A DNA stretch of 64,000 nt from Alphaproteobacteria bacterium (lineage in GTDB: Bacteria; Pseudomonadota; Alphaproteobacteria; GM7ARS4; G965262615): the NCBI GenBank assembly GCA_965262615.1, contig OZ253545.1, positions 928,001 through 992,000 of the forward strand, in the 5' to 3' direction. Of this stretch, positions 14,907 to 42,873 are shown piece by piece; the first letter of the stretch is position 1, and every line of letters begins with the position of its first letter. Made by a program: the position numbers and the translations under genes. A model generated the notes under the pieces. The model ran no database searches. It saw only the letters and a program-made list of their open reading frames with translations, and was not told the origin of the DNA.

Positions 14907-14915
14907 GAGGAGGCA

Positions 14916-17817: not shown

Positions 17818-17823
17818 TAGCAC

Positions 17824-19326: not shown

Positions 19327-19328
19327 AA

Positions 19329-20408: not shown

Positions 20409-20430
20409 ATTCTCAACCCTCTGCTTCGTC

Positions 20431-21201: not shown

Positions 21202-21242
21202 AACATCAGCGCGGAGATAGTGGAAAAAGCTCTGGCGAAAAC

Positions 21243-23723: not shown

Positions 23724-23735
23724 AAATTTTTACCA

Positions 23736-25875: not shown

Positions 25876-25898
25876 CCCCCAATCGTAGCACGAAAACC

Positions 25899-28800
25899 CT
25901 AAGGATTAAACAAAGAAGCACGCTCGCTTGGTGTGAACAATATGTAGCCCTCAAAATCGTTGCCCACTTCGTATTTGAAGCGTTCAAAAATCTCAACCAA
26001 AACTTGCCCACGCAAATACTCACGCCGTTCATCTTCGGTTTCATATTCCTGCTGTAATCGTTGCGTGGGGTTTGCAATTAATTCATTCATCAATTGCTCA
26101 TCGTGAGAGAAAGCGCGAATGTCCATGTAGAAGATGTCCTCAACGCACTCTTCTTTGTAGTTTCCATAAAGTGGCGACAGCTGAACAATCCTACCCACTG
26201 TGGTTTTGTCCACAATTAAAACTGGATTGTCAGACCTGTGATGAAAGCCACTGAAAACGGGTATTTTGTTCTTGTTGAAATCATACCAACCCTCAAACCC
26301 CTTAATATCAAGCTGTTGAACACCTTCTTCCCAACGATGTTTGAAATTTTGCGAAGATGAAAAGAGAGTCCAAAAAGAGTCATGTGTTGTGATAATGACA
26401 ACATCATTCACATTGGCAAATTGTGCCAATGTTGTCTCAAAGTCTCCCTCATCTATTTGTTCGCAACACTTGGCGATTTCGTCAAACAGGTAATTATTCT
26501 CAAAGCGAGCAATTTCCGCTCCATATACACCATGCACTCCAACTCCACTAACATGCCAGTTGTCTAAAAATATTTCTTTAGTAATAATTTCTTTAATTGT
26601 AAGCCAGCCGTCATTAGAACCAACTTCGTTTGCAGTTTGATCATCGTAAGCATTGAAATGCTTGATGAAAATATCGCGCATAATGGCACTATTACGGAAA
26701 GACTTTTTGTCTCCATCTTTGCACTTCCGCACCAAATGCTCCGAGATGGGACGCTCTTTTACTTCATCAAACTCTTGTTGCTCTTGTGCATCTTTTGCTT
26801 TGGCAAGCAGCTTTTTGAAAGCATCCACTTTCTCAATTGCCGCGTCTGTTAAAACAGGCTGCCATTGGTCTGAATTGTTTTTGATATGATCAAGAATTGA
26901 AACCACAGAACCTGATCCGCCAGCCAAGTCGGCAAAATCGCGAGAAGTGGGAAGATTAATTGTTGCAATTTGTTCATCAGTATAGCCCGCCAACAAAGAC
27001 AGAGCTTTGACGGCATAAAATTGTTCCAGATGAGCAAATGAATTTACGCGATAGGTTTCTCCCCCTTCTTTACCTTCAAATTCCCAAGAATTCCAACCAT
27101 GAGAATTAACTTTGTCAAAGTGATGACATCGCAAAAACAATCTTGTAAACGGCTCTATTTCCGATGGCATTTTTGCTTCAATTGCATTGTAAAATTTCTC
27201 AACGCTTCCCTTCTCGCTATCGGTGCGCCATTTGTTCAAAATCCAGCCGCTCAAGCCAAAAAGGACTTCTTGGTTTTTCTGATTTAGCGAATCCACCAAT
27301 CCTTTTGTTCTGTCAATGTTGTCGTAGCGCACCATATTTTCAAGACTTCTGAAAAGCTTTGTGGTCACAGACAGATATTTTTCAAAGGAATCAAAGTCTC
27401 TTTTGTCAAAAGAGGCTTTGAGCAAATCCTGAAAGATTAAAAGGACGGCAAATGCAAACCTCTCAATCCATTCAACTGGATATTCCCCGTCTTCTATTTT
27501 GTTGCGTAAATCACGCCGAATAATATCCCGAGAATTACGCCAAGAGCGGTTAAAAAGCAAATCAGCTTTTTCATCATTTCCGCCATCTCTTGCCTTGAGA
27601 CTTTGTCGATAGAGACGATAAGGATAATATCTCAATTCATCAAAAATTGAAAAATCCCTATGGGTAATTATTTGTCCCATCAGTGCAAATGGCAAATATG
27701 ATGCTGTGAGAGCAAACTTGCTTTTTGCCTCAACCGAGTGTTCAAATATTTCCTGAATATCATTCGTTATCCAGCGAGCTGGGTTAGGCTTCATGCCAAA
27801 AATTGGGATGGAATTCCATTGAGACTTCAGTTCCTCTGAGTATGGCTCTGCATAGCTGTAAAATGCTTCAAACAATTGTCTGTAATAGTTTAAAGCTTCT
27901 CCAAATTCCTTTTCTTGCTGCTGTTTGAGCAATTTTAAAGATAACACTCTCAATACACCCATATCGTTTCGAAGTGATTCCAAATTTAAACCACTTTCAT
28001 TGATATTGAATGCCTTATGAACCAGCCTCTCAATTTTTTCTTTCTGCTTTTTGTTAGCAAGCAAGTCATTGCGAACCCAAAGCAAAGTTTCTCCTTCATT
28101 AACATGGTAATGAAGCGAATCTACTCCTAAACGGTAACAAGGCTTATCCAATCCAAATTCAGCTGCGTCATTGTTGCTGAAAGCAATTTCTTTTAGTTTT
28201 TGCACATCCAAATCTGTCACCATGCCAGATTTTCTTGATTTTATTGCGGTGTATTCCTTCTCATCAGGGATGAGCCAAGAGTTCATATCAATGGCAGACC
28301 CCTTCAATGAACTGGCAACTTCTTTACTGCCAATGACTTGTTCCATTTCTAAGTCAAGTGATTTGAGAAAAGCCTTTTTTATGTTATCGAATAACATAGT
28401 TCTTTCCTCTTTTTCCAATTCATAACTATTGAGAAACGAGCCAAATGTTTTGTGGACTGAAAAAAGAGTATATATGCCGATGACAAATATGGGCATTATA
28501 ATCATAGTGTTTACATCCCTCCAAAAAAGGATGAAAAAAACAAGCACTTCAGCAATGAGAAGATATAAAAATTGGCTTCTCTTGAGTAAAATAATCCCTT
28601 TGTAAGGAAATTGATTGTTTTCGCCTCTTGCAATTTCTTGTGCCACAAAAAACGCCAAGCCAATAAGCACCGCACCAATACCCGAGTGGATGGCAACCAA
28701 AATTTCATGATATTCTTCTCCCAGAACATGAATTTCTGAAAAAGCTGAGGGAAAAAAGGTGTGTCCATGTGCAAGAAAAGCAAACAAGCCAAAGACGGCA

Positions 28801-28928
28801 ACAATGCCCAATATCTGCCAGCGAGAATACCAAAGAGGTTTTTCTCTCTTTTTGAGAATTTTATCTATTGCGGGGCTGTTTCTTTTTGCCGCCTTAATCC
28901 TTTTTGATAATAAGTCGCGTTGGTGCAT
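25899..28928 (-). CDS. Large hypothetical membrane protein (N-terminal ~4 TM, DUF2254-like segment)
   Basis: Long AT-rich ORF with hydrophobic helices, then 'IKSRKSGMVTDLDVQKL...VNEGETLL' resembling DUF2254. Start uncertain (28928 or 28964). Confidence 0.7.
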   Translation of the reverse strand: MHQRDLLSKRIKAAKRNSPAIDKILKKREKPLWYSRWQILGIVAVFGLFAFLAHGHTFFPSAFSEIHVLGEEYHEILVAIHSGIGAVLIGLAFFVAQEIARGENNQFPYKGIILLKRSQFLYLLIAEVLVFFILFWRDVNTMIIMPIFVIGIYTLFSVHKTFGSFLNSYELEKEERTMLFDNIKKAFLKSLDLEMEQVIGSKEVASSLKGSAIDMNSWLIPDEKEYTAIKSRKSGMVTDLDVQKLKEIAFSNNDAAEFGLDKPCYRLGVDSLHYHVNEGETLLWVRNDLLANKKQKEKIERLVHKAFNINESGLNLESLRNDMGVLRVLSLKLLKQQQEKEFGEALNYYRQLFEAFYSYAEPYSEELKSQWNSIPIFGMKPNPARWITNDIQEIFEHSVEAKSKFALTASYLPFALMGQIITHRDFSIFDELRYYPYRLYRQSLKARDGGNDEKADLLFNRSWRNSRDIIRRDLRNKIEDGEYPVEWIERFAFAVLLIFQDLLKASFDKRDFDSFEKYLSVTTKLFRSLENMVRYDNIDRTKGLVDSLNQKNQEVLFGLSGWILNKWRTDSEKGSVEKFYNAIEAKMPSEIEPFTRLFLRCHHFDKVNSHGWNSWEFEGKEGGETYRVNSFAHLEQFYAVKALSLLAGYTDEQIATINLPTSRDFADLAGGSGSVVSILDHIKNNSDQWQPVLTDAAIEKVDAFKKLLAKAKDAQEQQEFDEVKERPISEHLVRKCKDGDKKSFRNSAIMRDIFIKHFNAYDDQTANEVGSNDGWLTIKEIITKEIFLDNWHVSGVGVHGVYGAEIARFENNYLFDEIAKCCEQIDEGDFETTLAQFANVNDVVIITTHDSFWTLFSSSQNFKHRWEEGVQQLDIKGFEGWYDFNKNKIPVFSGFHHRSDNPVLIVDKTTVGRIVQLSPLYGNYKEECVEDIFYMDIRAFSHDEQLMNELIANPTQRLQQEYETEDERREYLRGQVLVEIFERFKYEVGNDFEGYILFTPSERASLFNP

Positions 28929-29043
28929 CCGCAGCCCTCTCCACCGTATACCCAGTGATAGCATTATGATACAATACTTTGAGGATTGTGCAAGGGTTTT
29001 TATCCCACTTTTTGTCCCTCCTCACTGCTTTGCAAATTATTTT

Positions 29044-29133
29044 TGGCGGAGGGAGAGGGATTCGAACCCTCGATACGGCTTCCCGCATACACGCTTTCCA
29101 AGCGTGCGCCTTCAACCACTCGGCCACCCCTCC
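29044..29133 (-). tRNA. tRNA-Ser(GGA)
   Basis: 90 nt: GGAGGGGTGGCCGAGTGG..., anticodon stem CACGC-TTGGAAA-GCGTG, long variable arm, GGTTCGAATCC, encoded CCA. Confidence 0.96.
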
Positions 29134-29145
29134 TGAGATAACAAA

Positions 29146-29637
29146 CTAAAAAGGAATGTCGTCATCAAAATCAGTGGTGCTGGTAGAACCAGCGGATGAG
29201 CCACCCCCCGCGCCGCCATCATAAGAGCCGCCGCCCGAACTACTGCCATCAGAGCCACCCTGCCAGCCACCGCTTCCGCTTCCACTGTTCCGAGAGCTGA
29301 GAAATGTCAATACTGAATTAAATCCGCTTAGAACAATCTCTGTGCTGTAGCGTTCAATGCCGGATTTATCGGTGTATTTGCGCGTCCGCAACTGTCCCTC
29401 AATATACAACATATCTCCTTTTTTCACATATTGCTTCACAATGCCCACCAAGCCCGAAATGAAAATAACCACCCGATGCCATTCCGTTTTTTCTTGGCGA
29501 TTGCCATCGCGATCCTTCCACGATTCCGATGTCGCCAGCGAGAGAGTCGCCATCTCTTTGCCGTCCTGCATGGAGCGAATATCAGGATCCGCTCCCGTTC
29601 TGCCCACCAAAATCACCTTGTTCACACTGCCTGCCAT
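29146..29637 (-). CDS. ssb: Single-stranded DNA-binding protein
   Basis: [28 protein letters not shown], Gly-rich linker and DDDIPF tail. Confidence 0.98.
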
Positions 29638-29755
29638 CGCCCTCTCCTTTTCTAACCTACAATTCGCCCCCTCGCGTTTGACAAATCATCATTCATCATC
29701 CACTTATGAACTTCTTGCCGAAGCGTATCCTATCACAACCGAAAAGAAAAATAAA

Positions 29756-32587
29756 ATGACTTCATCCACAATTCGCATCAATGGTGCGTCCGAGCATAAT
29801 CTGAAGAACATCAACCTCACCCTGCCACGCAACAAGCTGGTGGTCATCACGGGGCCCTCTGGCTCTGGCAAATCCACCCTCGCCTTTGACACCCTCTACG
29901 CCGAAGGACAAAGACGCTATGTGGAAAGTCTCTCCGCCTACGCTCGCCAATTTTTAGAGGTCATGAAAAAACCAGAGGTGCAGTCCATAGAAGGACTCTC
30001 GCCCGCCATCGCCATTGAACAAAAAACCACAGGACGCAATCCGCGCTCCACAGTGGGAACAGTCACAGAGATTTATGATTACTTGCGTCTGTTGTTTGCT
30101 CATGTGGGAGTGGCCTATTCACCTGCCACGGGCAAAAAAATCGCGGCACAGTCGGTATCGGAGATGGTGGATCGCATTCTCACACAGCCCAAAGGCAAGC
30201 GATTCTACCTGCTCGCTCCCATCATCAAAGGACGCAAAGGCAGCTACAAAAAAGAACTGCAAGAATTCGCCAAACGAGGATTTCAGCGCGTCCGCATTGA
30301 TGGCATCCTGCACGACATTCATCAAAGCCCCACCCTTGATAGCAAGCGCAAACACGATATTGACCTTGTGGTTGATCGTCTGGTGATTGATTCCTCCATC
30401 AAGGAACGCCTTGCCGACAGTCTGGAGACGGCACTGAACGAAAGCGGCGGCATCGCATGGCTGCTGCCCGCCGATGAGAGCGACACACAAGAGCCTCTGA
30501 TTTTTTCATCGCAACTGGCATGCCCCGTGTCTGGCTTTGCCATTGATGAACTCTCACCGCGCCTTTTTTCATTCAATAGCCCGCACGGTGCGTGTCGTCA
30601 TTGCAGTGGGCTGGGGGTGCAAAAGGTGTTTGACCCCTTGCGGGTGATTCCCAATGAACACCGCTCCATTGAAGATGATGCCATCGCACCGTGGCAGCTC
30701 AAACGATTTCACAGACGATACCGCGAGCTCAAAAGTGCTCTCATCAGCCACTACGCCATTGCCCCCGCCGCGCCATGGCGAGAGATTGATGAGTCCGTTC
30801 GTCATGCCCTGCTGCATGGCGAGGAATCTCCCATTGAGCTGCCCATTCATTACGGCAATGGAGCGGTGGCAACCGCGCCCTTTCATGGCATCTTGATGCA
30901 GCTGCAACGAGATTACGACAACAGCGACCGATGGCAACAAGATGACCTCAATCGCTATCTCACCGACCGCAATTGTCCCCACTGTGAAGGAAAGCGTCTG
31001 TGTGAGCAAGCTCTGGCGGTCAAAATAGATCATCAAACCATTGCCGATGTGTGCGATGTTCCCATTGACCAGTGTGCGGCGTGGATTGCCTCGCTGGCAA
31101 AAAAACTGTCCGCCAAGCAACAAGAGATTGGCGAGCGGTTGCTGCTGGAGATTGGCGAGCGGCTGCATTTTTTGAGCGAGGTAGGACTCAATTATTTGAC
31201 GCTGGCGCGCCATGCGGCGAGTCTATCGGGAGGTGAGGGTCAGCGTATTCGTCTGGCATCACAAATTGGCTCTGGGTTGACGGGAGTTTTGTATGTGTTG
31301 GATGAGCCTTCCATCGGCTTGCATCAACGCGACAATGAGCGTCTTCTTGCCACCCTGAAGCGATTGCGAGACTTGGGCAACAGCGTCATCGTGGTGGAAC
31401 ATGACGAAGACACCATTCGCACCGCCGATCATGTGGTGGATATGGGACCCGCCGCAGGCAATGATGGCGGCTTTGTCATGGATGAAGGCACGCCCGCCCA
31501 CATCACCCGCAAGGGCAAGGGACTCACCGCTCAGTATCTGCGAGGGGATAAAAAAATCGCCGTTCCCAAGCAACGCCGTCCCACCGATGCGGCGCGCGCC
31601 ATCACCATTCGTGGGGCACGGGGGCATAATCTGCAAACCATTGATGCCACCTTTCCTTTGGGATGCTTTATCTGTGTGACGGGTGTCTCGGGCAGTGGCA
31701 AATCCACACTGGTGATTGACACCCTCTATGAGGCGGTGCAACAGACACTGGCGCGGCGGCGCACGCTGGATGCCTCGCACTATGAGGCGGTGGAGGGATT
31801 GCAGTGGGTTGACAAGGTGGTGGATATTGACCAATCCCCCATTGGGCGCACGCCTCGTTCCAATCCTGCCACCTATACGGGAGCGTTTGGTCCCATTCGT
31901 GATTGGTATGCCCAGCTGCCTCTGGCTCGCAGTCGTGGATATAAGCCGGGGCGTTTTTCCTTCAATGTCAAAGGAGGACGCTGTGAGCATTGCGGCGGCG
32001 AGGGCATGGTGCGTATTGAGATGCACTTTTTGCCGGATGTCTATGTGGAGTGCGAGCACTGCAAGGGGCATCGTTTTGGCAGAGAGACGCTGCAGGTGCT
32101 GTGGCGCAAGAAATCCATTGCCGATGTGCTTGCCATGACGGTGGATGAGGCGTTTGACTTTTTTCGCGCCATCACGGCGGTCAAAAGCAAGCTGGAACTG
32201 CTTCATCGGGTGGGGCTGGGATACATCACCCTGGGACAACAAGCCACCACCTTGTCCGGAGGCGAGGCACAGCGTATTCGTCTGGCAAAGGAGCTGTCGC
32301 GCCGAGCCACGGGACGCACCCTCTACATTCTTGATGAACCCACCACGGGATTGCACTTTGATGATGTGGCGCAATTGCTCACGGTGTTGCACGAGCTGGT
32401 GGGTCAGGGCAACAGCGTGGTGGTGATTGAACACAATCTGGATGTCATCAAGACCGCCGATTGGATTTTAGACATGGGTCCCGAAGGCGGCGATGGCGGC
32501 GGACGCATCATTGCCTCCGGCACGCCCGAAACCATTGCCAAAGACCCTCACAGCCACACCGGACGCTTTCTCAAAAAGCTCCTGTAA
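29756..32587 (+). CDS. uvrA: Excinuclease ABC subunit A
   Basis: [33 protein letters not shown], zinc-finger Cys pairs, [12 protein letters not shown] and second ABC domain. Divergent from ssb; start set at ATG 29756. Confidence 0.98.
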
Positions 32588-33089
32588 AAGGCTTCATGTG
32601 GTCATGCAATGAAGACGGCACATCGTCAATGGATGCAATGTGCAGAGCGTTTTGTGTTTGCCCCACCTCATCATCACCGAATGCCACATTGACGACTTCA
32701 TCTTCCAGCGTCCACATTGCTCCCGTTGCGGGGTCAACAATCAGCCAGCCGATAAGACCGCCAAAAAACAGATTGCCTGCGACATACCATGCACGCACCG
32801 ATGCCGAAAGGGGAACAACGCGCTCGCCGCCACCCGCTTTTGTGAAGACGATGGTGTAATCCGCCCTTTCAAAGTATCCGCCACTGGCTTTGAGAGAGAC
32901 GGTGGCGGGGGTGCGTCCGTTGTGGAGGATAATTCCCTGATTATTTTTGACCACAAAGCGCACCCCTTCGGGCGATGACTGAATTGAGACCAAATCGGGC
33001 GATGACCCTTTGACAATACTGGCACAGCCAGCAAGAAGCACCGCCAATGGACACACACTGGCAAGCAGAAAGATGAACCGTTTTTTCAT
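32571..33089 (-). CDS. Lipoprotein with PEGA-like domain (paralogue of 9591-10100)
   Basis: Near-identical protein. Its 3' end overlaps the uvrA stop. Confidence 0.82.
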   Translation of the reverse strand: MKKRFIFLLASVCPLAVLLAGCASIVKGSSPDLVSIQSSPEGVRFVVKNNQGIILHNGRTPATVSLKASGGYFERADYTIVFTKAGGGERVVPLSASVRAWYVAGNLFFGGLIGWLIVDPATGAMWTLEDEVVNVAFGDDEVGQTQNALHIASIDDVPSSLHDHMKPFTGAF

Positions 33090-33297
33090 AACGAGACTCC
33101 TTAGGTTAGTTTTTGTTCATAAAGCCCAACTCATGTCGGGCTTTGCAAAGCCACCTAAGGACAGCTCCTACCTATTTCCTTTCCACACGCGAGGCGAGGT
33201 CGGGTGTTGTATTCAGTAAGAAGCCCGACCCACGCACATGGGTCAGACCTTAGGTTTATTGCTCTTACAGAATACAAAAAAACGCTGATATTTTCAA
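32587..33297. repeat. Inverted repeat, copy 2 (711 bp), including promoter and structured leader
   Basis: Reverse complement of 9383-10093. Confidence 0.95.
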
Positions 33298-33316
33298 TAA
33301 AAATTTACCCGACCTA

Positions 33317-33688
33317 TTATTGGCGAGTGGTATTGCTCAGGTTATATTTTCTTTCAAGCTTCAATTGCTCAATGTGGCGGATTTCTTTGTCCAATTGACT
33401 GACCAGCTTTGTCCTTTCCTCACCTTCGGGCATCGCCAACACATCATTCTTTCGATTGACTAATGCCATCAGCTCAACATTCAAAAGACGCTCATCCATG
33501 CGGTTAATCATCCGCAACAGCAATTCGTTTTGCTTGTCAAGCCGAGCATTAACGGCAGCAAATTGGGAATTAATATCCGCTTTGAATGCCGATATGTGAG
33601 AAGACACATAAAAACCGAATGCGATGGCAATCACCACCATCACGCCCTTTGTTCCAATTGTTTCTGCTGCCAGCTTCCAAAAACTCAT
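33317..33688 (-). CDS. Membrane-anchored coiled-coil protein, paralogue 1
   Basis: MSFWKL.., N-terminal TM, AFKADINSQFAAVNARLDKQN heptads and conserved C-terminus (DERLLNVELMAL...LDKEIRHIEQLK). Confidence 0.8.
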   Translation of the reverse strand: MSFWKLAAETIGTKGVMVVIAIAFGFYVSSHISAFKADINSQFAAVNARLDKQNELLLRMINRMDERLLNVELMALVNRKNDVLAMPEGEERTKLVSQLDKEIRHIEQLKLERKYNLSNTTRQ

Positions 33689-33787
33689 CGTGACATCCTC
33701 ACTTAAGTTATTGTCTTTTAATCCCTTTTGTCAAGTTGATTGTGAGGATTTTGAAAATCGACGCAAGAAGCCGAACAGACGCGATTC

Positions 33788-33951
33788 TTTAGTAAAAGTA
33801 GCGAATTACCAACACAGAATGTTTGACCATTGCGCGGATCAATTAATCTATAAACATAGTGTCCGAGTTCTTTTGTAGTGTCTGAACTAAATTGACCAGC
33901 CACAATGTCCTCCTCCACTTTCTCAATCGCATTGTATTCAGCAAGAAACAC
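33788..33951 (-). pseudogene. Internally deleted copy of the GIY-YIG nuclease gene
   Basis: First ~47 codons (LAEYNAI..YVYRLIDPRNGQTF) are joined directly to TTCGCTACTTTTAC, which matches the last codons of the intact gene (TTCGCTATTTTTAC). Confidence 0.85.
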
Positions 33952-33953
33952 CG

Positions 33954-34304
33954 CTACTGACGAGTGGTGTCGTCAAGTTCATATTTTCTTTCAAACTTCA
34001 ATTGTTCAATGTGGCGTATTCTTTTATCCAGTTGGTTCGCCGTATCCGACCTCTCCTGACTATCGGGCTGAGCCAGCACAATATCTTTTCTATTGTTTAA
34101 TGCCATCAGCTCAACATCCAAAAGACGCTCATCTATGCGCTTAAACATCCGCATCAAAAATTCGTTTTGTTCGTCAAACCGAGCATCAAGATCCGTTTTG
34201 AATTCTGATATGTGAGAAGAAACATAAAAAGTGGCTGCGATGGCAATCATCACCAGCACGCCGGTTCTTCCAATTGTTTCTGTTGCCAGCTTCCAAAAAC
34301 TCAT
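33954..34304 (-). CDS. Membrane-anchored coiled-coil protein, paralogue 2 (shortest stalk)
   Basis: EFKTDLDARFDEQN, same N- and C-termini as the other paralogues, AAGGA RBS. Confidence 0.8.
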   Translation of the reverse strand: MSFWKLATETIGRTGVLVMIAIAATFYVSSHISEFKTDLDARFDEQNEFLMRMFKRIDERLLDVELMALNNRKDIVLAQPDSQERSDTANQLDKRIRHIEQLKFERKYELDDTTRQ

Positions 34305-34410
34305 CATGACATCCTTACTCAAATTATTGTCTTTTAATCCCTTTTGTCAAGTTGATTGTGAGGCTTTCTAAAATCAACCCATGAGGCTATGCAACAGAGC
34401 CTATTCTTTA

Positions 34411-34770
34411 TTACCAAGAATAGTGAACAGGCGAGGCATCGCCTTTGTCTTTTGGCAATATTTTTCCTAGAAAAAGCTTTTTAACATCATCAGGAGCTTC
34501 TTCTCCTTCAAAGCCGTATCTGTCTGGCTCGCCTTCTTCATTTGGAAAATTTTCTTTTGTTGCTTCCATCCATCTATCTGCGACAAAAACGCCCACGACC
34601 ACTCCATGTTGCTCAGCCAACACATAATCAGCTTCTTGCGCCCTATCTACATCAATTTTCCACGCATATCTGACCGCGTCATAAACACCTTTTTCGTCAG
34701 CCGTATGGTTGACATTGACGAACATTAATTGCAGTCCATCCATATCCTCTTTTTTAATTTCTTCAGTCAT
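34411..34770 (-). CDS. Stand-alone acidic homologue of the nuclease C-terminal domain
   Basis: Aligns with the C-terminal half of 35354-36163 (YDAVRYAW..DRA.EADYVLA...GFEG.EAPD...ASPV). Has its own GGAGG RBS and a TTGCTA-N17-TATTCT promoter at 34805-34833. Confidence 0.8.
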   Translation of the reverse strand: MTEEIKKEDMDGLQLMFVNVNHTADEKGVYDAVRYAWKIDVDRAQEADYVLAEQHGVVVGVFVADRWMEATKENFPNEEGEPDRYGFEGEEAPDDVKKLFLGKILPKDKGDASPVHYSW

Positions 34771-34852
34771 AATGGAATCCTCCAGTATCGGTTTGTGTAT
34801 TCAGAGAATATCAAAAGCACGGATAATTAGCAAGGGCAATTCACCCGACCCA

Positions 34853-35245
34853 TTATTGGCGAGTGGCATCGTTCAAGTCATATTTTCTGTCAAACTTCAA
34901 TTGCTCAATACGGCGTATTTCTTTGTCCAATTGACTGACCAGTTTTGTCCTTTCCTCACCTTCAGGCATCGCCAACACATGATCCTTTCTATTGTTTAAT
35001 GCCATCAGTTCAACATTCAAAAGACGCTCATCCATGCGTTGAATCATCCGCAGCAACAATTCGTTTTGCTTGTCAAGCCGAGCATTAACGGCAGCAAATT
35101 GGGCATTAACATCCGCAAATTGGGCATTAATATCCGCTTTGAATGCCGATATGTGAGAAGACACATAAAAACCGAATGCGATGGCAATCATCACCAGAAC
35201 GCCGGTTCTTCCAATTGTTTCTGTTGCCAGCTTCCAAAAACTCAT
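34853..35245 (-). CDS. Membrane-anchored coiled-coil protein, paralogue 3
   Basis: AFKADINAQFADVNAQFAAVNARLDKQN, one heptad more than paralogue 1. Confidence 0.8.
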   Translation of the reverse strand: MSFWKLATETIGRTGVLVMIAIAFGFYVSSHISAFKADINAQFADVNAQFAAVNARLDKQNELLLRMIQRMDERLLNVELMALNNRKDHVLAMPEGEERTKLVSQLDKEIRRIEQLKFDRKYDLNDATRQ

Positions 35246-35353
35246 CGTCACACCCTTCCCTATGCTAAATTATTGTCTTTTGATTCCTTTTGTCAAGTTG
35301 ATTGTGAGGATTTTGAAAATCAACGCAAGAAGCCGAACAGACGCGATTTCCTA

Positions 35354-36163
35354 TCAACCCCTGTCGTAAAAATAGCGAACAGGCGATGCCTCTCCTTTTT
35401 TTCTTTTCATGCCGTCTGGCAATCTTCTTCTGTGAAAAAATTTTTTAATTTCATCAGGAGCTTCTTTTCCTTCAAAGCCCCATCTTTTTGACACGCCCTC
35501 TTTGCCTGGAAAATTTCTTGTTGTTGCCTTCATCCATTTCTCTGCGATAAAAACGCCCTTTACCAATCCCTGCTGGATAGCCAACACATAATCAGCTTCG
35601 CGCGCTCTATCTACATTAATTCTCCACGCATATCTGACCGCATCATATGCTTCTTCTTCGCCAGCTGTTCTGTTGATATTGATGAGCAGCAACTTATAGC
35701 GTTTGATATCCTCTTCTTGAATTTCCTTTGCTTCATACTTTTCAATCACTTGTTTGGCGTGCATGACACCGCGATCGGCATAATGTCCCGAAATTTCATT
35801 TAATACTTCGGGATAAGCATCAATTAATGCCGCTTCCACTTCAAAAGCTGTGTTCTCATCTAAGCCATGACGATGGATAATGTGGGCAACTTTGAAGCCA
35901 TCGTTTTTAATCTGTGCAATGCGTTTTATTTTGTCACTGTTTTGGTCGACTTCTTCCTCCGTCATATCCTCCATGACACCATCAGCGTGTTGAAAGACGC
36001 GATCCCCTTTGCCTTTGCCAACATAGAATGTTTGACCATTGCGCGGGTCAATTAATCTATAAACATAGTACTTGAGTTTTTCTGCGGTTTCTAAACGAAA
36101 TCGACCAGCCACAATGTCCTCCTCCACTTTTCCAATCGCATTGTATTCAGCAAGAGACACCAC
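35354..36163 (-). CDS. LEM-3/ANKLE1-like (COG3680-type) GIY-YIG nuclease
   Basis: YYVYRLIDPRNGQTFYVGKGKGDRVFQH...AFEVEAALID...LN: GIY-YIG hairpin with conserved Arg, Glu and Asn. Start overlaps the paralogue 4 stop (TAGTG). Confidence 0.85.
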   Translation of the reverse strand: MVSLAEYNAIGKVEEDIVAGRFRLETAEKLKYYVYRLIDPRNGQTFYVGKGKGDRVFQHADGVMEDMTEEEVDQNSDKIKRIAQIKNDGFKVAHIIHRHGLDENTAFEVEAALIDAYPEVLNEISGHYADRGVMHAKQVIEKYEAKEIQEEDIKRYKLLLININRTAGEEEAYDAVRYAWRINVDRAREADYVLAIQQGLVKGVFIAEKWMKATTRNFPGKEGVSKRWGFEGKEAPDEIKKFFHRRRLPDGMKRKKGEASPVRYFYDRG

Positions 36164-36654
36164 TACTGACGAGTGGTGTCGTCAAGTTCATATTTTCTTT
36201 CAAACTTCAATTGCTCAATGTGGCGGATTTCTTTGTCCAATTGACTGACCAGCTTTGCCCTTTCCTCACTTTGAGGCATCGCCAGCACATCATTCCTTCG
36301 ATTGACCAATGCCATCAGTTCAACATTCAAAAGACGCTCATCCATGCGTTGAATCATCCGCAGCAACAATTCGTTTTGCTCGTCAAACCGAGCATCCATG
36401 GCATCAAACCGAGCATCCATGGCATCAAATCTGGCATCCATGGCATCAAATCTGGCTTCAAATTTGGCATCCATGGCATCAAATTCGGCTTCAAATTTGG
36501 TATCCATGGCGGCGATTTGGGAATCAATATCCGTTTTGAATTCTGATACATGAAAATAAAATGTAAAAGACACATAAAAAGTGCCCGCGATGGCAATCAT
36601 CACCAGCGCGCCCGTCCTTCCAATTGATTCTGTGATCAGCTTCCAAACACTCAT
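36163..36654 (-). CDS. Membrane-anchored coiled-coil protein, paralogue 4 (expanded FDAMDAR repeats)
   Basis: 21-bp and 33-bp tandem repeats at ~36384-36508 encode ...KFEAEFDAMDAKFEARFDAMDARFDAMDARFDAMDARFDEQN. Confidence 0.82.
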   Translation of the reverse strand: MSVWKLITESIGRTGALVMIAIAGTFYVSFTFYFHVSEFKTDIDSQIAAMDTKFEAEFDAMDAKFEARFDAMDARFDAMDARFDAMDARFDEQNELLLRMIQRMDERLLNVELMALVNRRNDVLAMPQSEERAKLVSQLDKEIRHIEQLKFERKYELDDTTRQ

Positions 36655-36786
36655 CGCACCATCCTTCCTTAAATTATTGTCTTTTAATCCCTTTTGTCAA
36701 GTTGATTGTGAGGCTTTCTAAAATCAACCCATGAGGCTATGCAACAAAAGAGCGTCAATCGTTCCTCAATTCACAGAGAAAAGTTG

Positions 36787-39700
36787 ATGACACAATACAA
36801 AAAATGGTTGGCGGGGATGGTGGCACTGAGCGTCATGCCATCAGGCGCACACGGTCTGCCGGACAAATGCGCCATCAGCAGTGATGCCAATGACAATAAC
36901 AAAGTCACCATCAATTGCGAGGGCAATCACTCATTGGGCATCACGGAATCCGACATGATGACCGGCACAACTCCCGCCCAATGGGGCGAGGTGACCATCA
37001 ATCTTCGCAATCTCACCCACGACATCAACACGGTCGCATCCAGAAAAACTGCCATTTTATTTGGTTATGACCTTGGTCCCACCACAGGGAACATCATCGT
37101 CAATAATCAGATTCATGATGCCACCCGGCACACCATCACGGGATATGAGGAGGGCTTATTTATTGCTGGCAACAGTGGCGGCACGGTGACACTCAACAAT
37201 GCGGGCACCATTAGCATCACGGGAGGCAGAGGCGATGCGGTGGAGCTGAATGCCCCTCAGGGATCCCATCTGGTGAATACCGGCAGGATTATTGGCATGG
37301 GAACAAATTCCAATGGTGTGCAGCTGGATCAGTCTTTGGGGGACGGGGCATTGTCGCTCGTCAATCGCAATCTCATTGAAACCCGTGGTGATGGGGGGCG
37401 CGCCGTGCATTTCAACATGTTATCGGCTCGCAGTCAGACAGCAGGAGCGGTGACCATTCACAATGAAAGTGGCGGTGTCATTCGCACCCAAGCCGACAGA
37501 GTCAGTTACTATTTACCCGAAGCGGTGATTATTCCCATCAGTCGGACTTTTTCCACAGTGACGCTGGAAAACGCGGGGCTCATTGAAGCCATTGGGTCAG
37601 GGGGCAGCGGCGTGGATATTGTCAGTCGCGATAATCAAGGTGAGAGCGTCACGGTTCTCAACAAAAGCGGCGGGCGTATTCATGCCAGTGGTGACCTCTA
37701 TGAAGATCCTCAAGGCAGGCATTATGATGCCAACGGTGTGCAAATTATCATGAAGCAACAAGCGGTGGCAATCACGGTGGAAAATGGCGAGACCAATGCC
37801 CCCAAAGACAGCAGCATCATCGCCACAGGCACGGGCGGCAGAGGTGTCTATGTGCAGGTGGATGGCAATAAAGCAGGCGGCGATGTCATGATTCGCAACC
37901 ACGCACGAGGCACGATTGCCACCCGTCTGCCACGAGGGCTGACTCTTTTGACCCAAGGGGATAATCCCGACCGCAGTGATGCCATTCGCATTGAAGCCCC
38001 CAGCAGCGCAGGCGCAATGACGGTGGATAATGCAGGATTGATAGAGGCATGGCGCAACGGTGGGCATGGGGTGTCCGCCATTCTCACCAGTGGGACGGGC
38101 GGTGGCTTTTCTTTGACCAACCGAGCAGGGGCAACCATTGACACTCGCGGCGCACTGCAAGACACCATCGGTAGCGATGCGGTGTATATCAGTGCCGTGA
38201 GCGGCGGCAAGGCAATGACGGTGGATAACAGTGGCACGATTCGCGCTGGCGGCTCTCACAGTCGGGCGGTGTCCATTTTGATGAGCCGCAGCACGGGGGA
38301 TGCCACCATCACCAACAGGGCAACGGGCATCATGAGCACCGTGCCCTATCCCACCAGTCCCACCACCAGCAGCACCATTGCCGAACACGGCATTTATATT
38401 GATGCCAAAAATGCCACAGGGGATGTGAGCGTCACCAATCAGGGGCATATTGAGGTGGGACATCAAAACAGCGATGGCATTTATATTGATGCCGCCAGTA
38501 GCACAGGGGATGTGTCGGTGATTCATGAGGGCGCACTGGTGCTGCATGATGAAACCAGCACCGCCACCACCATCAAAGGAGGCTCATCAGCCATTGAACT
38601 GCGCTACAAAAGAAATGCCGTCATGGCTCTGCTGGCGGACGGGCACGATTTGAATCTGCTCTCCCTCACTGGCGGCAGCACCGCCACCAATGACCCCAAT
38701 GACATCACCATTGAATCCTTCGTGGGCATGGAGGGCGGCATAAAGACGGGCGCGGGCGTTGAGCGTCTCACCATTGAGAAGGATGCCACCCTAATCATGA
38801 CCTCATTGGACATGGGAACGGGCAACGATCGCATCGTTGTCAATGGCACGCTGGGATTGCTGCCACGCACCTACAATAATGTGGAGACATTGTCTCAGGG
38901 GGCAACGGGGCGATTGTATTTTTTGCAAGCCAGTCAAAAGTCTCATGCCGACTTTGGCTCTGCCGCGCTCACTTTGGCAGGAGACATTGTGTTGGGCGAT
39001 GACTTTGAGATGCTGGTGGGCGATGACGATGTCATTTTAGAAACCGATGGCAGATTGAATGTGGATGATTTAGACCCCGTGCTGCAATTTGCCAGTGATT
39101 CGGCGGTGCACAATCAGTATTCGTGGACCAGTCAGAGCCATACTGTGTCGGTGGCGCGCGATTTTCGCTTTGTGTCGGATTCATCGGTGGTGGGAGAGCG
39201 TTTGACATCGGTGGCGCGCTATTTAGATGAGGTGATTGCCGCCACCAAAGGAGATTCGTTGTCTGCCGCCAATAAACTGGCTCTCAAACGCATGGCGACC
39301 GCCATTGCCGATGAGGCGGCAACCAGTGGTTTTCAAGACGGTCTCAATGTGGTGAGTGGAGCGGTTTATGGGGCGATCAATGAGTTTGCCTATCAGTCTC
39401 ATCAATCGTTTATGCGTCAGATTTTTGATGACCCGTGCCATCTGCCTGTTGCGGATCGTGTTGTGGATGTGGAGGGCAGTCAGTCTTTTTTGCTGTTTGA
39501 CGGTGACGGCGAATCCATAGCGGTGGGAGGAGTCCAGCCTCTGCCTGATTCCTTGCGAAACAAAGAAGAGGTGGATGATGTGGATGACCCTGTGGTGTTA
39601 TGGGACACCGCGCCGCATCGCTCGTGTGAGTTTATCGCCTTTGGCGGCGGCGTGACCCAAAGCAAAAACTCACAAGAATCGGCTGGATTTGATGAATACA

Positions 39701-40494
39701 GTCGCTTCATGCTCACGGGAGGCATTCGCTGGCGTCCTGTGGACGAGACCGATTTCACATTCACGCTGGCGGGACAATATCAATCATCTCATCATCAAAG
39801 TGACACCGATGCGGTGGGAGAGAGCGCGGGCGTGGGGCATCATGTGCGAGCGGCAGCCGCACTGTCTCATGATTGGTTGCTGGATGACGCGCTCTATGAT
39901 GTCATGGTGGGAATCGTGGGAGGCTACAGTCAGTATGATATTGACAGGCGCATGAATGCCGCCGAGAATGTCACCATGGGGGCGCGCGGGAAGGCAAACA
40001 TTGCAACGGTGGGGGCGCGCGCAGGCAATAGCATTCGCTTTGCCCTGTCTCATTGGTTTATAGAGCCATTTGCTCACTATGATTGGACTCACATTCGTTT
40101 TGGTCAATTGGATGAGACGGGCGATACACTGGCACTCTCTGTGGGGGCGATCAATGATTGGATGCAGACGGTATCGGCGGGACTCAAAGTGGGCGCGCGC
40201 TTTGAAATCGGAGGCGGACAACTCATTGAATCGGATGTGACGGTCAGCTTTTCTCGTCTGCTTCATCACAAAGAACAGCGTGATTCCAATCAATTATTAC
40301 TGTTGGATGACTCCATTGTGGCAGGTGACATGATGAACGGATTTTACACCACCCCCAACATGTTGTTTGTCTCGGCTGGATGGAAGCTGCTGGGCAGTGA
40401 GGATATTATTGGCTCTTTGACCTATGATGGCGTTGTGCCTCTGACACAACACAAGGTGACCAGTCATTCGGGACGCTTGCAGCTGTATTTTTAA
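36787..40494 (+). CDS. Autotransporter (type Va) adhesin-like protein
   Basis: Signal peptide, NxGxI beta-helix-type repeats, C-terminal amphipathic beta-strands ending in LQLYF. Start chosen at MTQYK. Confidence 0.85.
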   Translation: MTQYKKWLAGMVALSVMPSGAHGLPDKCAISSDANDNNKVTINCEGNHSLGITESDMMTGTTPAQWGEVTINLRNLTHDINTVASRKTAILFGYDLGPTTGNIIVNNQIHDATRHTITGYEEGLFIAGNSGGTVTLNNAGTISITGGRGDAVELNAPQGSHLVNTGRIIGMGTNSNGVQLDQSLGDGALSLVNRNLIETRGDGGRAVHFNMLSARSQTAGAVTIHNESGGVIRTQADRVSYYLPEAVIIPISRTFSTVTLENAGLIEAIGSGGSGVDIVSRDNQGESVTVLNKSGGRIHASGDLYEDPQGRHYDANGVQIIMKQQAVAITVENGETNAPKDSSIIATGTGGRGVYVQVDGNKAGGDVMIRNHARGTIATRLPRGLTLLTQGDNPDRSDAIRIEAPSSAGAMTVDNAGLIEAWRNGGHGVSAILTSGTGGGFSLTNRAGATIDTRGALQDTIGSDAVYISAVSGGKAMTVDNSGTIRAGGSHSRAVSILMSRSTGDATITNRATGIMSTVPYPTSPTTSSTIAEHGIYIDAKNATGDVSVTNQGHIEVGHQNSDGIYIDAASSTGDVSVIHEGALVLHDETSTATTIKGGSSAIELRYKRNAVMALLADGHDLNLLSLTGGSTATNDPNDITIESFVGMEGGIKTGAGVERLTIEKDATLIMTSLDMGTGNDRIVVNGTLGLLPRTYNNVETLSQGATGRLYFLQASQKSHADFGSAALTLAGDIVLGDDFEMLVGDDDVILETDGRLNVDDLDPVLQFASDSAVHNQYSWTSQSHTVSVARDFRFVSDSSVVGERLTSVARYLDEVIAATKGDSLSAANKLALKRMATAIADEAATSGFQDGLNVVSGAVYGAINEFAYQSHQSFMRQIFDDPCHLPVADRVVDVEGSQSFLLFDGDGESIAVGGVQPLPDSLRNKEEVDDVDDPVVLWDTAPHRSCEFIAFGGGVTQSKNSQESAGFDEYSRFMLTGGIRWRPVDETDFTFTLAGQYQSSHHQSDTDAVGESAGVGHHVRAAAALSHDWLLDDALYDVMVGIVGGYSQYDIDRRMNAAENVTMGARGKANIATVGARAGNSIRFALSHWFIEPFAHYDWTHIRFGQLDETGDTLALSVGAINDWMQTVSAGLKVGARFEIGGGQLIESDVTVSFSRLLHHKEQRDSNQLLLLDDSIVAGDMMNGFYTTPNMLFVSAGWKLLGSEDIIGSLTYDGVVPLTQHKVTSHSGRLQLYF

Positions 40495-40605: not shown

Positions 40606-40977
40606 TTACCTTCCGCAATATTTAGACCATGCACGCCCAAAATCGGATACTTCACTCTCAAGAAATGTTGCATACACTGTGCCAGAAGAAAGAAAACGCT
40701 GAAAGCCAGTATAGCCCCCAAAAGAATTCTTAGAATTTACCTCACCACAAGCAACAGGAACTTTATTAGGGCTACGATAGAGAAAAACATTTCTAAATTT
40801 TGCTGAATCTGGATCTTTCAGTTTCTCTCTAACCATTTTTTTCCCGAATTCCATCCATGTGAAATCATCTATCTTATCGAAATCACGCGTCATATCCCTA
40901 CCAAAACTATCATTGTTTGAACCTATAGCCATCATCAATAAAACAATAGCAAAAAGCACTGCATATCTTAACTGCAT
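40606..40977 (-). CDS. Small exported hypothetical protein
   Basis: GAGG RBS, signal peptide, and LKDPDSAKFRNV...CGEVNSKNSFGGYTGFQRF, a motif widespread in mobile-region proteins. Confidence 0.75.
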   Translation of the reverse strand: MQLRYAVLFAIVLLMMAIGSNNDSFGRDMTRDFDKIDDFTWMEFGKKMVREKLKDPDSAKFRNVFLYRSPNKVPVACGEVNSKNSFGGYTGFQRFLSSGTVYATFLESEVSDFGRAWSKYCGR

Positions 40978-41302
40978 AATTCCGTCCTCTTGATGCGAGC
41001 CGTGATTATAGTATTGGTCTCTCAATTTGTAAAGAGCGATATTAGGCGGTGTGCGAAGAGTCATCCCCGACAAACAAAAATGGGGGTGATAATCGCTATG
41101 AGTGGTATTGTAATTTAATAACGGAAACTCCCTCGCGTCCATCCATTGACATAAGGTGGTGTGAAGCGTCTGGCATCTTTGGCGGGAAACCGTGCCGATG
41201 GTTCGAATCTCGCACCGTCCGCCGATTGCCGAAAAGACTGCGTAAAAATTATAATTCTTGGAGTGGTAGCAAACTTTCACCTAACAATGTATATGGTTTT
41301 GG

Positions 41303-42635: not shown

Positions 42636-42873
42636 ATCAACGCCCCACCCCACAACCATCTTTCTTATTGTCGCCGCCACTGCTACACTCACATCAAAGA
42701 CAAATCTGGCGAGATCGCACAAAGCGATCCCGCCACTGATGACTTACCCTGTCATTGCACCGATTTTGTATATTAAGTCCCTTTTAAAAAATGTAACGAA
42801 TTGATTGCATCTGTTACATAAGGGATGCAAGACAGTTTTCCATCATTGATGTTCGTCTCATAGGGAGATGGAC

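Follow-up and report, generated by a model that had tools for sequence, protein, structure and literature searches.

A PD-T4-3/CMoRE-type restriction endonuclease in a tandem array with membrane coiled-coil genes in an alphaproteobacterium

Results

Organization of the array

The locus lies within a 64,000-nt window of an alphaproteobacterial genome (contig OZ253545.1, positions 928,001 to 992,000), to which all coordinates below refer. On the minus strand, four promoter-preceded genes for small membrane coiled-coil (CC) proteins are arranged with one full nuclease gene, a gene for the C-terminal domain of the nuclease only, and a dead nuclease remnant, and a lipoprotein gene follows. The features, in minus-strand order, are as follows.

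36673 to 36728, minus: promoter of type B with dyad, before CC4
36163 to 36654, minus: CC4, a small coiled-coil membrane protein of 163 aa that has an additional FTFY insert and 7-residue (21-nt) repeats
35354 to 36112, minus: intact PD-T4-3/CMoRE-type type IV restriction endonuclease, 252 aa from a likely GTG start (longest ORF to 36163, 269 aa)
35269 to 35324, minus: promoter of type A with dyad, before CC3
34853 to 35245, minus: CC3, membrane coiled-coil protein, 130 aa when read from the ATG of MSFWKL (35251 is where the longest ORF starts)
34411 to 34770, minus: CMoRE modification-sensing domain alone, 119 aa, with its own Shine-Dalgarno (SD) sequence and ATG (PDLC04031, E = 2.4e-35, profile positions 137 to 254)
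34323 to 34378, minus: promoter of type B with dyad, before CC2
33954 to 34304, minus: CC2, membrane coiled-coil protein, 116 aa when read from the ATG of MSFWKL (34322 is where the longest ORF starts)
33806 to 33951, minus: dead nuclease remnant within a 77-aa ORF (33718 to 33951), which then runs into promoter A
33707 to 33762, minus: weakened version of the type A promoter (GTCGATT in the dyad, AATAAC as the −10 element), before CC1
33317 to 33688, minus: CC1, 123-aa membrane coiled-coil protein, with only a nuclease-leader relic (CTGAATACAA) on its 3′ side
32571 to 33089, minus: lipoprotein, 172 aa, outside the repeats (phrog_6823, E = 9.2e-35)

All eight minus-strand ORFs listed in the initial annotation were found in place, and their positions, together with the repeat families, bear out its description of the array. 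Families D1 (279 nt, four copies, 69 to 91% identical to the reference copy) and D2 (213 nt, four copies, 72 to 85%) span the CC genes and promoters, and families D4 (300 nt, 83%) and D5 (279 nt, 78%) lie over the nuclease pieces. These repeats are true duplications, well above chance. The lipoprotein has an Atlas score of 0.97 to widespread Pseudomonadota clusters, in which 14 to 20% of members carry PEGA, and it gave no match in Pfam and NCBIfam searches. It is unlikely to be part of the system and is probably only a neighbor.

The intact nuclease belongs by homology to the PD-T4-3/CMoRE family

PD-T4-3/CMoRE is described as a single-gene type IV enzyme that cuts phage DNA containing hydroxymethyl- or glucosyl-cytosine, and the accompanying survey of 22,803 genomes counts 274 such systems, “all single-component” (PMC12923530). 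Family traits include cleavage of 5hmC/5ghmC DNA, protection against phages whose DNA is modified, and assembly as a tetramer. Judged by its sequence, the product of the intact gene is a full-length homolog of this enzyme. It matches the PADLOC profile PDLC04031 (PD-T4-3) with E = 5.9e-91 over positions 5 to 255 of 256, and its residues 25 to 264 match the CMoRE chains 9u75 (E = 9e-67) and 9u7u (E = 1.1e-61) in the PDB. All 47 invariant columns of a 39-sequence family alignment are present, and in the same alignment the YVY...FYVG signature and the catalytic Arg and Glu are kept. The segments YYVYRL...FYVGKGKGDRVF...FEVEAAL match the E. coli residues of the GIYxY-YIG motif, as defined for CMoRE (PMC12923530), at columns that are invariant in the 39 sequences. 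The third tyrosine that characterizes this motif is found along with the catalytic Arg and Glu.

An acidic autoinhibitory loop is reported for “most” CMoRE members (PMC12923530), and a negatively charged loop is present between α2 and α3 of the nuclease. This loop, EDMTEEEVDQNSD, aligns to the AADDDDLLSN loop of E. coli CMoRE, wherein its acidic stretch EDMTEEEVD lines up with the DDDD residues. Unlike its E. coli counterpart, it is two residues longer and, in place of four acidic residues in a row, has three Glu in succession plus Asp. The alignment continues through residue 264 and takes in the C-terminal modification-sensing domain. At about 48% identity to the studied E. coli enzymes (tblastn, E. 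coli plasmid copies), the substrate of the nuclease is one that we can only infer.

The nuclease therefore shares with E. coli PD-T4-3/CMoRE (9U7U, 9U75) a two-domain architecture over its full length, including the GIYxY-YIG motif, the catalytic Arg and Glu, the acidic lid loop, and the C-terminal modified-cytosine sensing domain. It also shares a scattered occurrence across genomes, plasmids, and phages. PD-T4-3 is present in 9 of 400 other genomes of the class and on 181 plasmid and 22 phage records, which is a typical distribution for a defense gene. The locus also differs from known PD-T4-3/CMoRE systems in its arrangement. The nuclease gene is second in an apparent operon, after a lineage-specific membrane CC gene, and it stands in a tandem array with one intact, one sensing-domain-only, and one dead copy. 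The enzyme is of a familiar type, and the array that contains it is unusual.

The initial annotation had assigned the nuclease to the Pfam family LEM-3_GIY-YIG, and this assignment holds (PF22945, E = 8e-14, residues 45 to 136). The GIY-YIG core indeed fits a Pfam model built around the eukaryotic LEM-3/ANKLE1 proteins. An orphan LEM-3-like protein was nevertheless rejected as an identity given the full-length PD-T4-3/CMoRE match. No ankyrin or LEM match was found in Pfam at E ≤ 0.1, the C-terminal domain corresponds to the CMoRE sensing domain, and the role of the nuclease would be restriction of modified phage DNA rather than chromatin-bridge resolution. As in PvuRts1I, MspJI, McrBC, and GmrSD, a comparison made in PMC12923530, a modified-base reader is coupled to a nuclease, but here the two folds, that of the nuclease (GIY-YIG) and that of the reader, are both different. 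A model of the reader domain matched YTH-like structures only weakly (E = 0.04, TM ~0.41).

The earlier statement that bacterial homologs lack an assigned role is out of date, as PD-T4-3/CMoRE has been characterized experimentally (PMC12923530). A Capnocytophaga homolog degrades modified DNA of T4 and Mu in vitro (10.1101/2025.02.28.640651), PD-T4-3 is reported to be active within its native E. coli host (10.1101/2024.12.20.629700), and CMoRE has been proposed for 5hmC detection (PMC12923530). The profile and structure-sequence matches that place the nuclease in this family also support the original guess of an anti-phage function. The active part of the locus would be one two-domain enzyme, with an N-terminal GIYxY-YIG nuclease bearing the acidic lid loop and a C-terminal modified-base sensor. 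By homology, it would bind and then cut hypermodified phage DNA (hydroxymethyl- or glycosyl-cytosine, possibly others), and so act alone as a type IV restriction enzyme.

Promoters and the nuclease start

The regions upstream of the four CC genes have a mean identity of 83% when aligned and fall into two types, wherein the CC4 region pairs with that of CC2 and the CC3 region with that of CC1. The promoters before CC4, CC3, and CC2 were each identified from sequence, alignment, promoter scan, and dyad match. These three carry TTGACA-16-AATAAT (11 of 12 consensus matches), and the CC1 copy reads AATAAC. The dyad GTTGATT-N14-AATCAAC, said originally to adjoin the −35 element of every promoter, does so in exact form in three copies, and in the CC1 copy it has changed to GTCGATT. 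Across the 1.54 Mb genome, the pattern TTGATT-N12–16-AATCAA occurs at five sites, three of which are in the array, and the reversed pattern used as a control occurs at none.

The longest nuclease ORF begins at a GTG that overlaps the CC4 stop codon, from which translational coupling through TAGTG had been proposed. This overlap is probably an artifact of choosing the longest ORF. An internal GTG at 36112, located 51 nt downstream, follows GGAGGAGG, and when the leader shared with the sensing-domain gene is aligned, it falls on the ATG of that gene. Close homologs of the nuclease are called at 248 to 252 aa. The GTG at 36112 is the likely start on this basis, which would leave a 50-nt spacer after CC4. 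Neither a promoter nor a terminator was found between CC and nuclease.

The CC proteins form a lineage-restricted family

Small coiled-coil proteins with an N-terminal transmembrane helix include the i-spanins (Rz), YhcB/ZapG, and PspB. The CC proteins are built similarly: an N-terminal transmembrane helix is followed by a long helix, which a short break containing proline separates from a second one; in the AlphaFold model of CC3 (pLDDT 71), the helices span residues 5 to 93 and 99 to 131. The i-spanin identity was rejected because no o-spanin, endolysin, or holin is present at the locus, and the neighboring lipoprotein, at 172 aa, belongs to a widespread PEGA-like group. CC4 contains 21-nt and 33-nt tandem repeats.

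CC has no match in PADLOC and none above threshold in Pfam or NCBIfam, and its PHROG matches are weak and to families of unassigned function (E = 3.4e-6 and 9.1e-6). Relatives number 21 among 5.8 billion clusters, and the family comprises 7 representative clusters among 1.84 billion proteins and occurs in 0 of 400 other genomes of the class. On these searches, the CC family is confined to the lineage. A CC-like tandem pair is also found between the housekeeping genes hisBH and ahcY/trxB, with no nuclease nearby.

Fates of the nuclease copies

As had been described, a single intact nuclease stands against four intact CC genes, the other pieces being the dead remnant and the C-domain-only gene. 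The first ~48 codons of the remnant share 87.7% DNA identity with the intact nuclease gene and keep 15 of the 18 invariant residues covered. The changes are Y30C, K33N, and G34S, and the YIG tyrosine has become Cys.

The C-domain-only gene has lost the nuclease domain cleanly and in frame, with its SD sequence and start codon retained. All 13 invariant C-domain residues are kept, and the predicted structure (pLDDT 89) resembles the C-domain of 9u75 and 9u7u (TMq 0.81 to 0.84). Its ORF is intact in other assemblies at 96% and 83% identity. The protein is 55% identical to the C-domain of the neighboring nuclease versus 62% to a second nuclease type, P0004. From these sequence features, the gene looks maintained rather than decaying.

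Synonymous divergence is similar for CC pairs (dS 0.15 to 0.39) and for the C-domain copy compared with the intact nuclease (0.34). The nuclease pieces have dN/dS values of 0.82 (the C-domain copy) and 0.72, versus 0.36 to 0.56 for CC pairs, and CC3 compared with the other CC copies gives 0.40 to 0.48. In a related strain, X5 (roughly 96 to 97% identical), contigs join position 34821 to 36740 and 33194 to 34844, and the array thus differs between strains.

Discussion

We consider it fairly probable that the locus is a tandemly amplified, partly decayed PD-T4-3/CMoRE cassette, and that CC provides a separate membrane function with amplified dosage and is not a required partner of the nuclease. 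In each cassette, a strong sigma-70 promoter with an operator-like dyad would drive transcription of the gene for a lineage-specific bitopic membrane CC protein and then of the nuclease as second gene, with its own SD sequence. Unequal crossing-over between near-identical promoter/CC segments may have produced a pair of B and A units, which was later duplicated as a whole. Nuclease copies that were redundant would have decayed afterward, with all four CC genes apparently kept under moderate purifying selection. The locus shifts from a possible new system to a known one, the family gains a distant, apparently marine-associated member, and the array would show that PD-T4-3/CMoRE genes can amplify in tandem and then decay.

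The original proposal of a nuclease with a CC partner called for recurrent linkage, and this is absent outside the lineage. Neither a CC homolog nor any small N-terminal-transmembrane coiled-coil gene upstream was found at the 26 other PD-T4-3 loci (0/26 for each), in keeping with 0 of 400 class genomes. As gene neighborhoods indicate, CC is not a general partner of PD-T4-3. Within the lineage, the CC-then-nuclease order occurs in three units with a shared leader. A diverged CC (P0142, 57% identical to CC4) and a nuclease (P0002, 82 to 84% identical) are each on an ENA contig of 1933 nt, and contig sizes of 18897, 11787, and 35455 are likewise common to CC and nuclease proteins. The equal sizes suggest lasting linkage in relatives, and shared ancestry would look alike. 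Because the two remain together within the lineage, a partner role for CC is possible though unsupported.

Such a role would make CC a true accessory in a two-component variant, in which the membrane coiled coil tethers, senses for, or restrains the nuclease, perhaps by keeping it where phage DNA enters the cell. The repeated operon order, the lack of a promoter or terminator between the genes, and the apparent co-occurrence in relatives are consistent with this arrangement, and a lid-loop mutant of E. coli CMoRE is reported to be toxic, such that restraint can matter (PMC12923530). However, family members are reported to need no second gene, either in E. coli or in vitro (PMC12923530; 10.1101/2025.02.28.640651; 10.1101/2024.12.20.629700), CC copies outlast nuclease copies in the array, and nuclease-free CC-like genes exist. 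The charges flanking the transmembrane helix also weakly favor an N-in/C-out topology, which would put the coiled coil on the periplasmic side of the membrane and the nuclease, in the cytoplasm, on the other. We therefore regard an accessory role as rather unlikely. A broader reading, which we find quite unlikely, is a working multi-part variant in which CC brings the nuclease to the envelope or gates it there, the separate sensing domain joins a head-to-tail oligomer or recombines to alter the modifications recognized, and the promoter/CC repeats serve as anchors for gain, loss, or swap of cassettes.

Decay of redundant copies, as our preferred reading supposes, fails to explain the C-domain-only gene, as this keeps its SD sequence, ATG, invariant residues, and an ORF across strains. 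The lone sensing domain might instead be a working part, either a subunit that joins or caps a head-to-tail CMoRE oligomer and tunes or widens its specificity, or a donor cassette that recombines into the full gene using the CC/promoter repeats as anchors. Its clean in-frame origin, its confidently predicted CMoRE fold, its greater similarity to P0004 than to its neighbor, and the variation of the array among strains would all fit, as would the report that CMoRE dimers are head-to-tail and that defense requires oligomerization (PMC12923530). Against this, its dN/dS of 0.82 suggests relaxed selection, and a word-based search of proteins of 65 to 209 aa gave one stand-alone candidate outside the lineage (114 aa, 44% identity), which is on a 923-nt contig and may be a fragment. 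For the donor version, the repeats are direct, so that a crossover would delete rather than switch, and evidence for chimeric alleles is lacking. On balance, a working role seems improbable. If functional, this natural, conserved lone sensing domain would offer a ready test of reader or modulator action on modified DNA.

Abortive effectors are often small membrane proteins. This fact and the adjacency of the genes could mean that the two form a toxin-antitoxin or abortive-infection pair. CC would then be either the effector in the membrane or the antitoxin, and the nuclease either the toxin or the sensor. We judge such a pair very unlikely, since it does not recur outside the lineage, CC has no PADLOC match, three of the CC genes are retained although no working nuclease accompanies them, and the wild-type family enzyme is reported to be non-toxic and to act directly on phage DNA (PMC12923530). 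These observations leave the TA-like and DNA-bridge-resolution roles that were first suggested without support.

Over-expansion of the repeats by the assembler is highly improbable. Short-read contigs from public runs end at the repeats, so that each covers a part of the array and not its full length. However, the copies diverge by 9 to 31%, which collapse or expansion artifacts do not yield, the genome is a single 1.54 Mb contig, and single junctions are bridged by contigs from other studies (one bridges 34334 to 35238).

The CC proteins constitute an orphan family of small membrane coiled-coil proteins that are strongly promoted and variable in heptad number between strains, and that could matter if functional. 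A defense island is also present in the same window, 4 to 20 kb from the array.

Anatomy and origin of the array

The locus is probably a tandemly amplified and partly decayed array of PD-T4-3/CMoRE (type IV restriction enzyme) cassettes, wherein the small membrane coiled-coil (CC) proteins are not required partners of the nuclease. It is unusual in that a known defense nuclease sits behind an orphan membrane coiled-coil gene, in that the two are amplified in tandem with decay, and in that a conserved stand-alone sensing domain is present. The minus-strand array is flanked in the ORF list by uvrA and an autotransporter gene, both on the plus strand.

Features of the array and its flanks (window coordinates, from the ORF list; array genes in transcription order)
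36739-40494, plus strand, autotransporter gene (PF03797)
36163-36654, minus strand, CC4, 163 aa, first in order
35354-36163, minus strand, nuclease ORF, 269 aa, second
34853-35251, minus strand, CC3, third
34411-34770, minus strand, 119-aa ORF, fourth
33954-34322, minus strand, CC2, fifth
33718-33951, minus strand, 77-aa ORF, sixth
33317-33688, minus strand, CC1, seventh
32571-33089, minus strand, lipoprotein gene, last
29357-32587, plus strand, uvrA
36383-36510 and 35082-35137, tandem repeats of 21 and 33 nt, in frame within CC4 and CC3 (heptads DAMDARF, ADVNAQF)

Two direct-repeat families with four copies each, 279 nt (69-91% identity to the reference) and 213 nt (72-85%) long, span the CC genes along with the sequence upstream of them, and the nuclease pieces form direct-repeat pairs of 300 nt (83%) and 279 nt (78%). 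These repeats confirm that the array is a real duplication. The four CC upstream regions align with a mean identity of 83% and fall into two types, one shared by CC4 and CC2 and the other by CC3 and CC1. The anatomy described in the initial annotation, including its two-level duplication, is borne out by the ORF list, the direct repeats and the promoter types. The accompanying claim of a dyad and promoter at each CC gene stands for three copies, where a promoter scan found TTGACA-16-AATAAT (11 of 12 consensus positions), whereas the region upstream of CC1 carries AATAAC and a single-base change in the dyad. The half-dyad pattern occurs at five sites in the 1.54 Mb genome, three of them inside the array, and its reversed control at none. 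An Rfam search over 32400-37000 (E<=0.1) gave no matches. The lipoprotein gene was rejected as a system component, being outside the repeats and a member of a widespread family.

CC4 and CC2 end in CAGTAGYGG with a shared leader directly after, and CC3 and CC1 end in CAATAATRGGTCGGGT, with an insert preceding the leader. Taken with the promoter types, these 3′ ends point to a B-unit that would comprise a CC gene and a full nuclease gene, and an A-unit that would comprise a CC gene, the insert and a C-domain gene. The B-A pair would then have been duplicated, and the lower pair would have lost both nuclease-derived genes. Synonymous distances are similar for the CC pairs and the nuclease pieces, which fits duplication of whole units.

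Contig junctions in a related strain (X5, a sequencing run labeled marine metagenome) indicate that the array varies between strains. Short contigs of this run, in pieces roughly 96-97% identical, link 34821 with 36740 and 33194 with 34844, and a 1060-nt contig spans 35280-36340. These junctions, short of a full reconstruction, suggest a single B-A pair with the C-domain gene beside the autotransporter side. Among the other public runs that match the array, X1-X3 are possibly the source sample and not independent, and X7-X11, which share little with it and carry labels of sponge metagenome, marine metagenome or a coded organism, were excluded. No RNA dataset was listed among the matching runs, which has no bearing on expression.

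The nuclease belongs to a published defense family

The proposed assignment of the nuclease as a LEM-3-like GIY-YIG protein was upheld by an HMM search, which matched residues 45-136 of the ORF to PF22945 (LEM-3_GIY-YIG, E=8e-14). Other matches are more specific and place the protein in the PD-T4-3/CMoRE family, away from LEM-3. These are PD-T4-3 in PADLOC (E=5.9e-91, profile positions 5-255 of 256), phrog_5356 in PHROGs (E=7.5e-75) and, over residues 25-264, the CMoRE crystal structures 9u75 (E=9e-67) and 9u7u (E=1.1e-61). The protein keeps the YVY and FYVG tyrosines and the catalytic Arg and Glu, its acidic loop aligns to the PDB sequences as EDMTEEEVD, and it shares all 47 invariant columns of a 39-sequence family alignment. 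PD-T4-3 was reportedly discovered by Vassallo et al. in 2022. A homing-endonuclease or mobile GIY-YIG reading was rejected, since the CMoRE sensing domain is present and a DNA-binding homing module is absent.

According to Liu et al. 2026 (PMC12923530), PD-T4-3, renamed CMoRE, is a type IV restriction enzyme with a single component. In their account, the N-terminal GIY-YIG domain carries a "GIYxY-YIG" motif, an acidic loop over the active site blocks cutting of ordinary DNA, the C-terminal domain binds 5-hydroxymethylcytosine, and a head-to-tail dimer-of-dimers is required for defense; the 274 systems surveyed in 22,803 genomes were "all single-component" (PMC12923530). A Capnocytophaga homologue is reported to degrade modified T4 and Mu DNA in vitro (10.1101/2025.02.28.640651), and activity of PD-T4-3 is reported for the E. 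coli host in which it naturally occurs (10.1101/2024.12.20.629700). The literature retrieved on the family, paper supplements aside, describes no membrane partner and no tandem array. The proposal of a new system is not supported, as its effector belongs to this published single-gene family.

The nuclease probably starts within its longest ORF

The stretches between each CC stop and the next gene share an aligned leader, CTGAATACA...GGAGGA...CATTRTG, and in this alignment a GTG inside the nuclease ORF (codon 18; window position 36112) falls opposite the ATG that begins the 119-aa ORF. GGAGGAGG precedes this GTG, and the GTG further upstream, overlapping the stop of CC4, lacks such a site. Close nuclease homologues have recorded sizes of 248, 249 and 252 aa, and the PD-T4-3 profile match begins at residue 21 of the 269-aa ORF. 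From these features, the TAGTG overlap, and with it the proposed translational coupling, is most likely a longest-ORF artefact, with the start probably at GTG 36112 behind its own upstream site. With such a start, a 50-nt spacer would separate the nuclease from CC4, and the interval would hold a distinct ribosome-binding site. Because a scan found neither promoter nor terminator in this interval, the two genes are likely co-transcribed.

CC genes form a lineage-confined family

The four CC proteins share 73-86% pairwise identity, and each has an N-terminal hydrophobic stretch and a long predicted helix, followed by a short break at MPEGE and a second helix (helices 5-93 and 99-131 in the CC3 model, mean pLDDT 71). 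CC4 has extra 7-residue repeats encoded by the 21-nt and 33-nt tandem repeats. Relatives vary by whole heptads, with CC4-type proteins of 141 to 163 aa, and a related strain has one additional 21-nt unit in a CC2-like gene. The dN/dS values of the CC pairs (0.36-0.56) indicate that these are genuine genes, moderately constrained.

CC fits no curated family in Pfam, NCBIfam or PADLOC; all Pfam and NCBIfam matches fall below curated cut-offs and are coiled-coil noise, and PHROGs yields weak matches to families of unknown function. Relatives at 61-90% identity number 21, nearly all in ENA assemblies. Seven representatives (E<=0.001) were found in 1.84 billion proteins, a search without length limit and thus one in which fused forms are absent. 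CC was found in none of 400 other genomes of the class, none of 109 pattern matches in JGI metagenome contigs was confirmed, tblastn against phage records gave no match, and the best ESM Atlas score for CC3 (0.81) was under lead level. By these searches, the family is confined to this lineage.

A distant tandem CC-like pair (165 and 121 aa, 37% identity) with 7-residue repeats (IETRFAN) lies at G000:C1:255333-256201 (L009 1363-2231; L049 5333-6201). It is bordered by hisB/hisH plus a pentapeptide-repeat gene on one flank and by ahcY and a thioredoxin-reductase-like (trxB-like) gene on the other, with no nuclease in its neighborhood. One of the two proteins scores 26.1 bits against DUF7365 (Pfam cut-off 27) and has a weak XhlA match.

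CC is unlikely to be an accessory of the nuclease

We consider it unlikely that CC is a true accessory of the nuclease. Three units retain the CC-nuclease order, and related proteins may keep company as well: P0142 (57% identical to CC4) and the nuclease-type P0002 are both on a 1933-nt contig, and contigs are equal in size for P0133/P0130 and P0004 (18897 nt), P0148 and P0150 (35455 nt), and P0147/P0139 and P0001 (11787 nt). These equal ENA contig sizes, the sole basis of the comparison, suggest co-location in relatives, but shared descent would yield the same pattern.

The recurrent linkage expected from the initial annotation did not emerge from a neighborhood survey of 26 PD-T4-3 loci in other genomes (15 from a general contig search, 11 from a same-class search), which contained neither CC nor an analogue. 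A CC profile that detects the CC copies in the window at E<=1e-64 found none on the six-frame ORFs of these loci (best E=1.3), and none of the 26 has a small N-terminal-TM gene upstream of PD-T4-3 among its flanking ORFs. In L023 a 583-aa membrane protein lies upstream, and other loci show HTH genes, a 590-aa protein, recombinases or divergent genes. Moreover, the family is sufficient alone in experiments, the CC genes outlast the nucleases in the array, and charge counts weakly favor an N-in, C-out topology that would make the coiled coil periplasmic. Co-folding of the nuclease with the soluble part of CC4 (residues 36-163) scored 0.00 in both runs, which weighs neither way on binding.

Nuclease-derived pieces

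The 77-aa ORF retains the first ~48 nuclease codons (87.7% DNA identity), has lost the YIG tyrosine and two further invariant residues, and then reads into promoter A; it is dead. The 119-aa ORF begins at the inter-domain linker, retains the family leader, SD and start codon, and matches PD-T4-3 profile positions 137-254 (E=2.4e-35) with 13 of 13 invariant C-domain residues kept. Its model (mean pLDDT 89) superposes on the 9u7u/9u75 C-domain (TMq 0.81-0.84), and other assemblies contain 119-120 aa ORFs with the same start at 96% and 83% identity. It is 55% identical to the neighboring nuclease's C-domain and 62% to that of P0004, a second nuclease type from a relative.

This ORF may be a reader-only protein that is being maintained, or a copy in slow decay. 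That the stand-alone domain or the cassettes have a working role seems to us slightly less likely than a CC accessory role; against function of the domain, dN/dS is 0.82 relative to the intact nuclease (dS 0.34). What little probability remains falls jointly to a TA/Abi pair or an assembly artefact.

After CMoRE, the best Foldseek matches of the sensing-domain model (m00482b1d1f29, 34411-34770) are YTH m6A-reader domains (E=0.04, prob 0.87, TM about 0.41), and the list also includes the YTH-like N-terminal domain of archaeal McrB. The CMoRE paper reports finding no structural homologue (PMC12923530). The domain may have a distant PUA/YTH-like relationship.

Family distribution and genome context

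The nuclease family is large and patchily distributed, with 6517 proteins (E<=0.001) among 7270 candidates. It is also present in 181 plasmid records and 22 phage records. Homologues occur in 9 of 400 other genomes of the class, and 60 nearer relatives yielded one weak match. Pairs of PD-T4-3 paralogues separated by tens of kb occur in several genomes (G140:C6 86622-111776; G236:C1 348859-406742), and two proteins of one MAG contig (P0041 and P0052) are spaced likewise, so multiple copies per genome are recurrent.

A defense island lies 4-20 kb from the array and includes a Dsr1-like protein, several methyltransferases and a type IIG-like pair.

Defense island features (window coordinates)
10101-28964, island of lower G+C (0.38-0.47), adjoining tRNA-Ser (29044-29133)
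11495-14482, Dsr1-like SIR2 protein (PDLC04167, E=2.1e-91)
16624-19326, two type II methyltransferases
19329-20408, weak type IV REase-like ORF directly after the methyltransferases
21243-23723 (also T5orf172 domain) and 23736-25247, split type IIG RM-like pair
25899-28964, 1021-aa ORF without family

Downstream of the autotransporter gene, within 40606-47283, are three ORFs of 224, 278 and 1471 aa without a Pfam family at E<=0.01. In a Truepera sp. MAG contig (L022 1198-4949), a PD-T4-3 homologue directly adjoins uvrA as in the window, which is probably coincidence. The longest uvrA ORF (1076 aa) reaches ~130 codons beyond the conserved UvrA start on its upstream side (29357 to about 29760) and overlaps the divergent ssb gene (29146-29637; PF00436, E=1.2e-31), so that uvrA probably begins near 29760.
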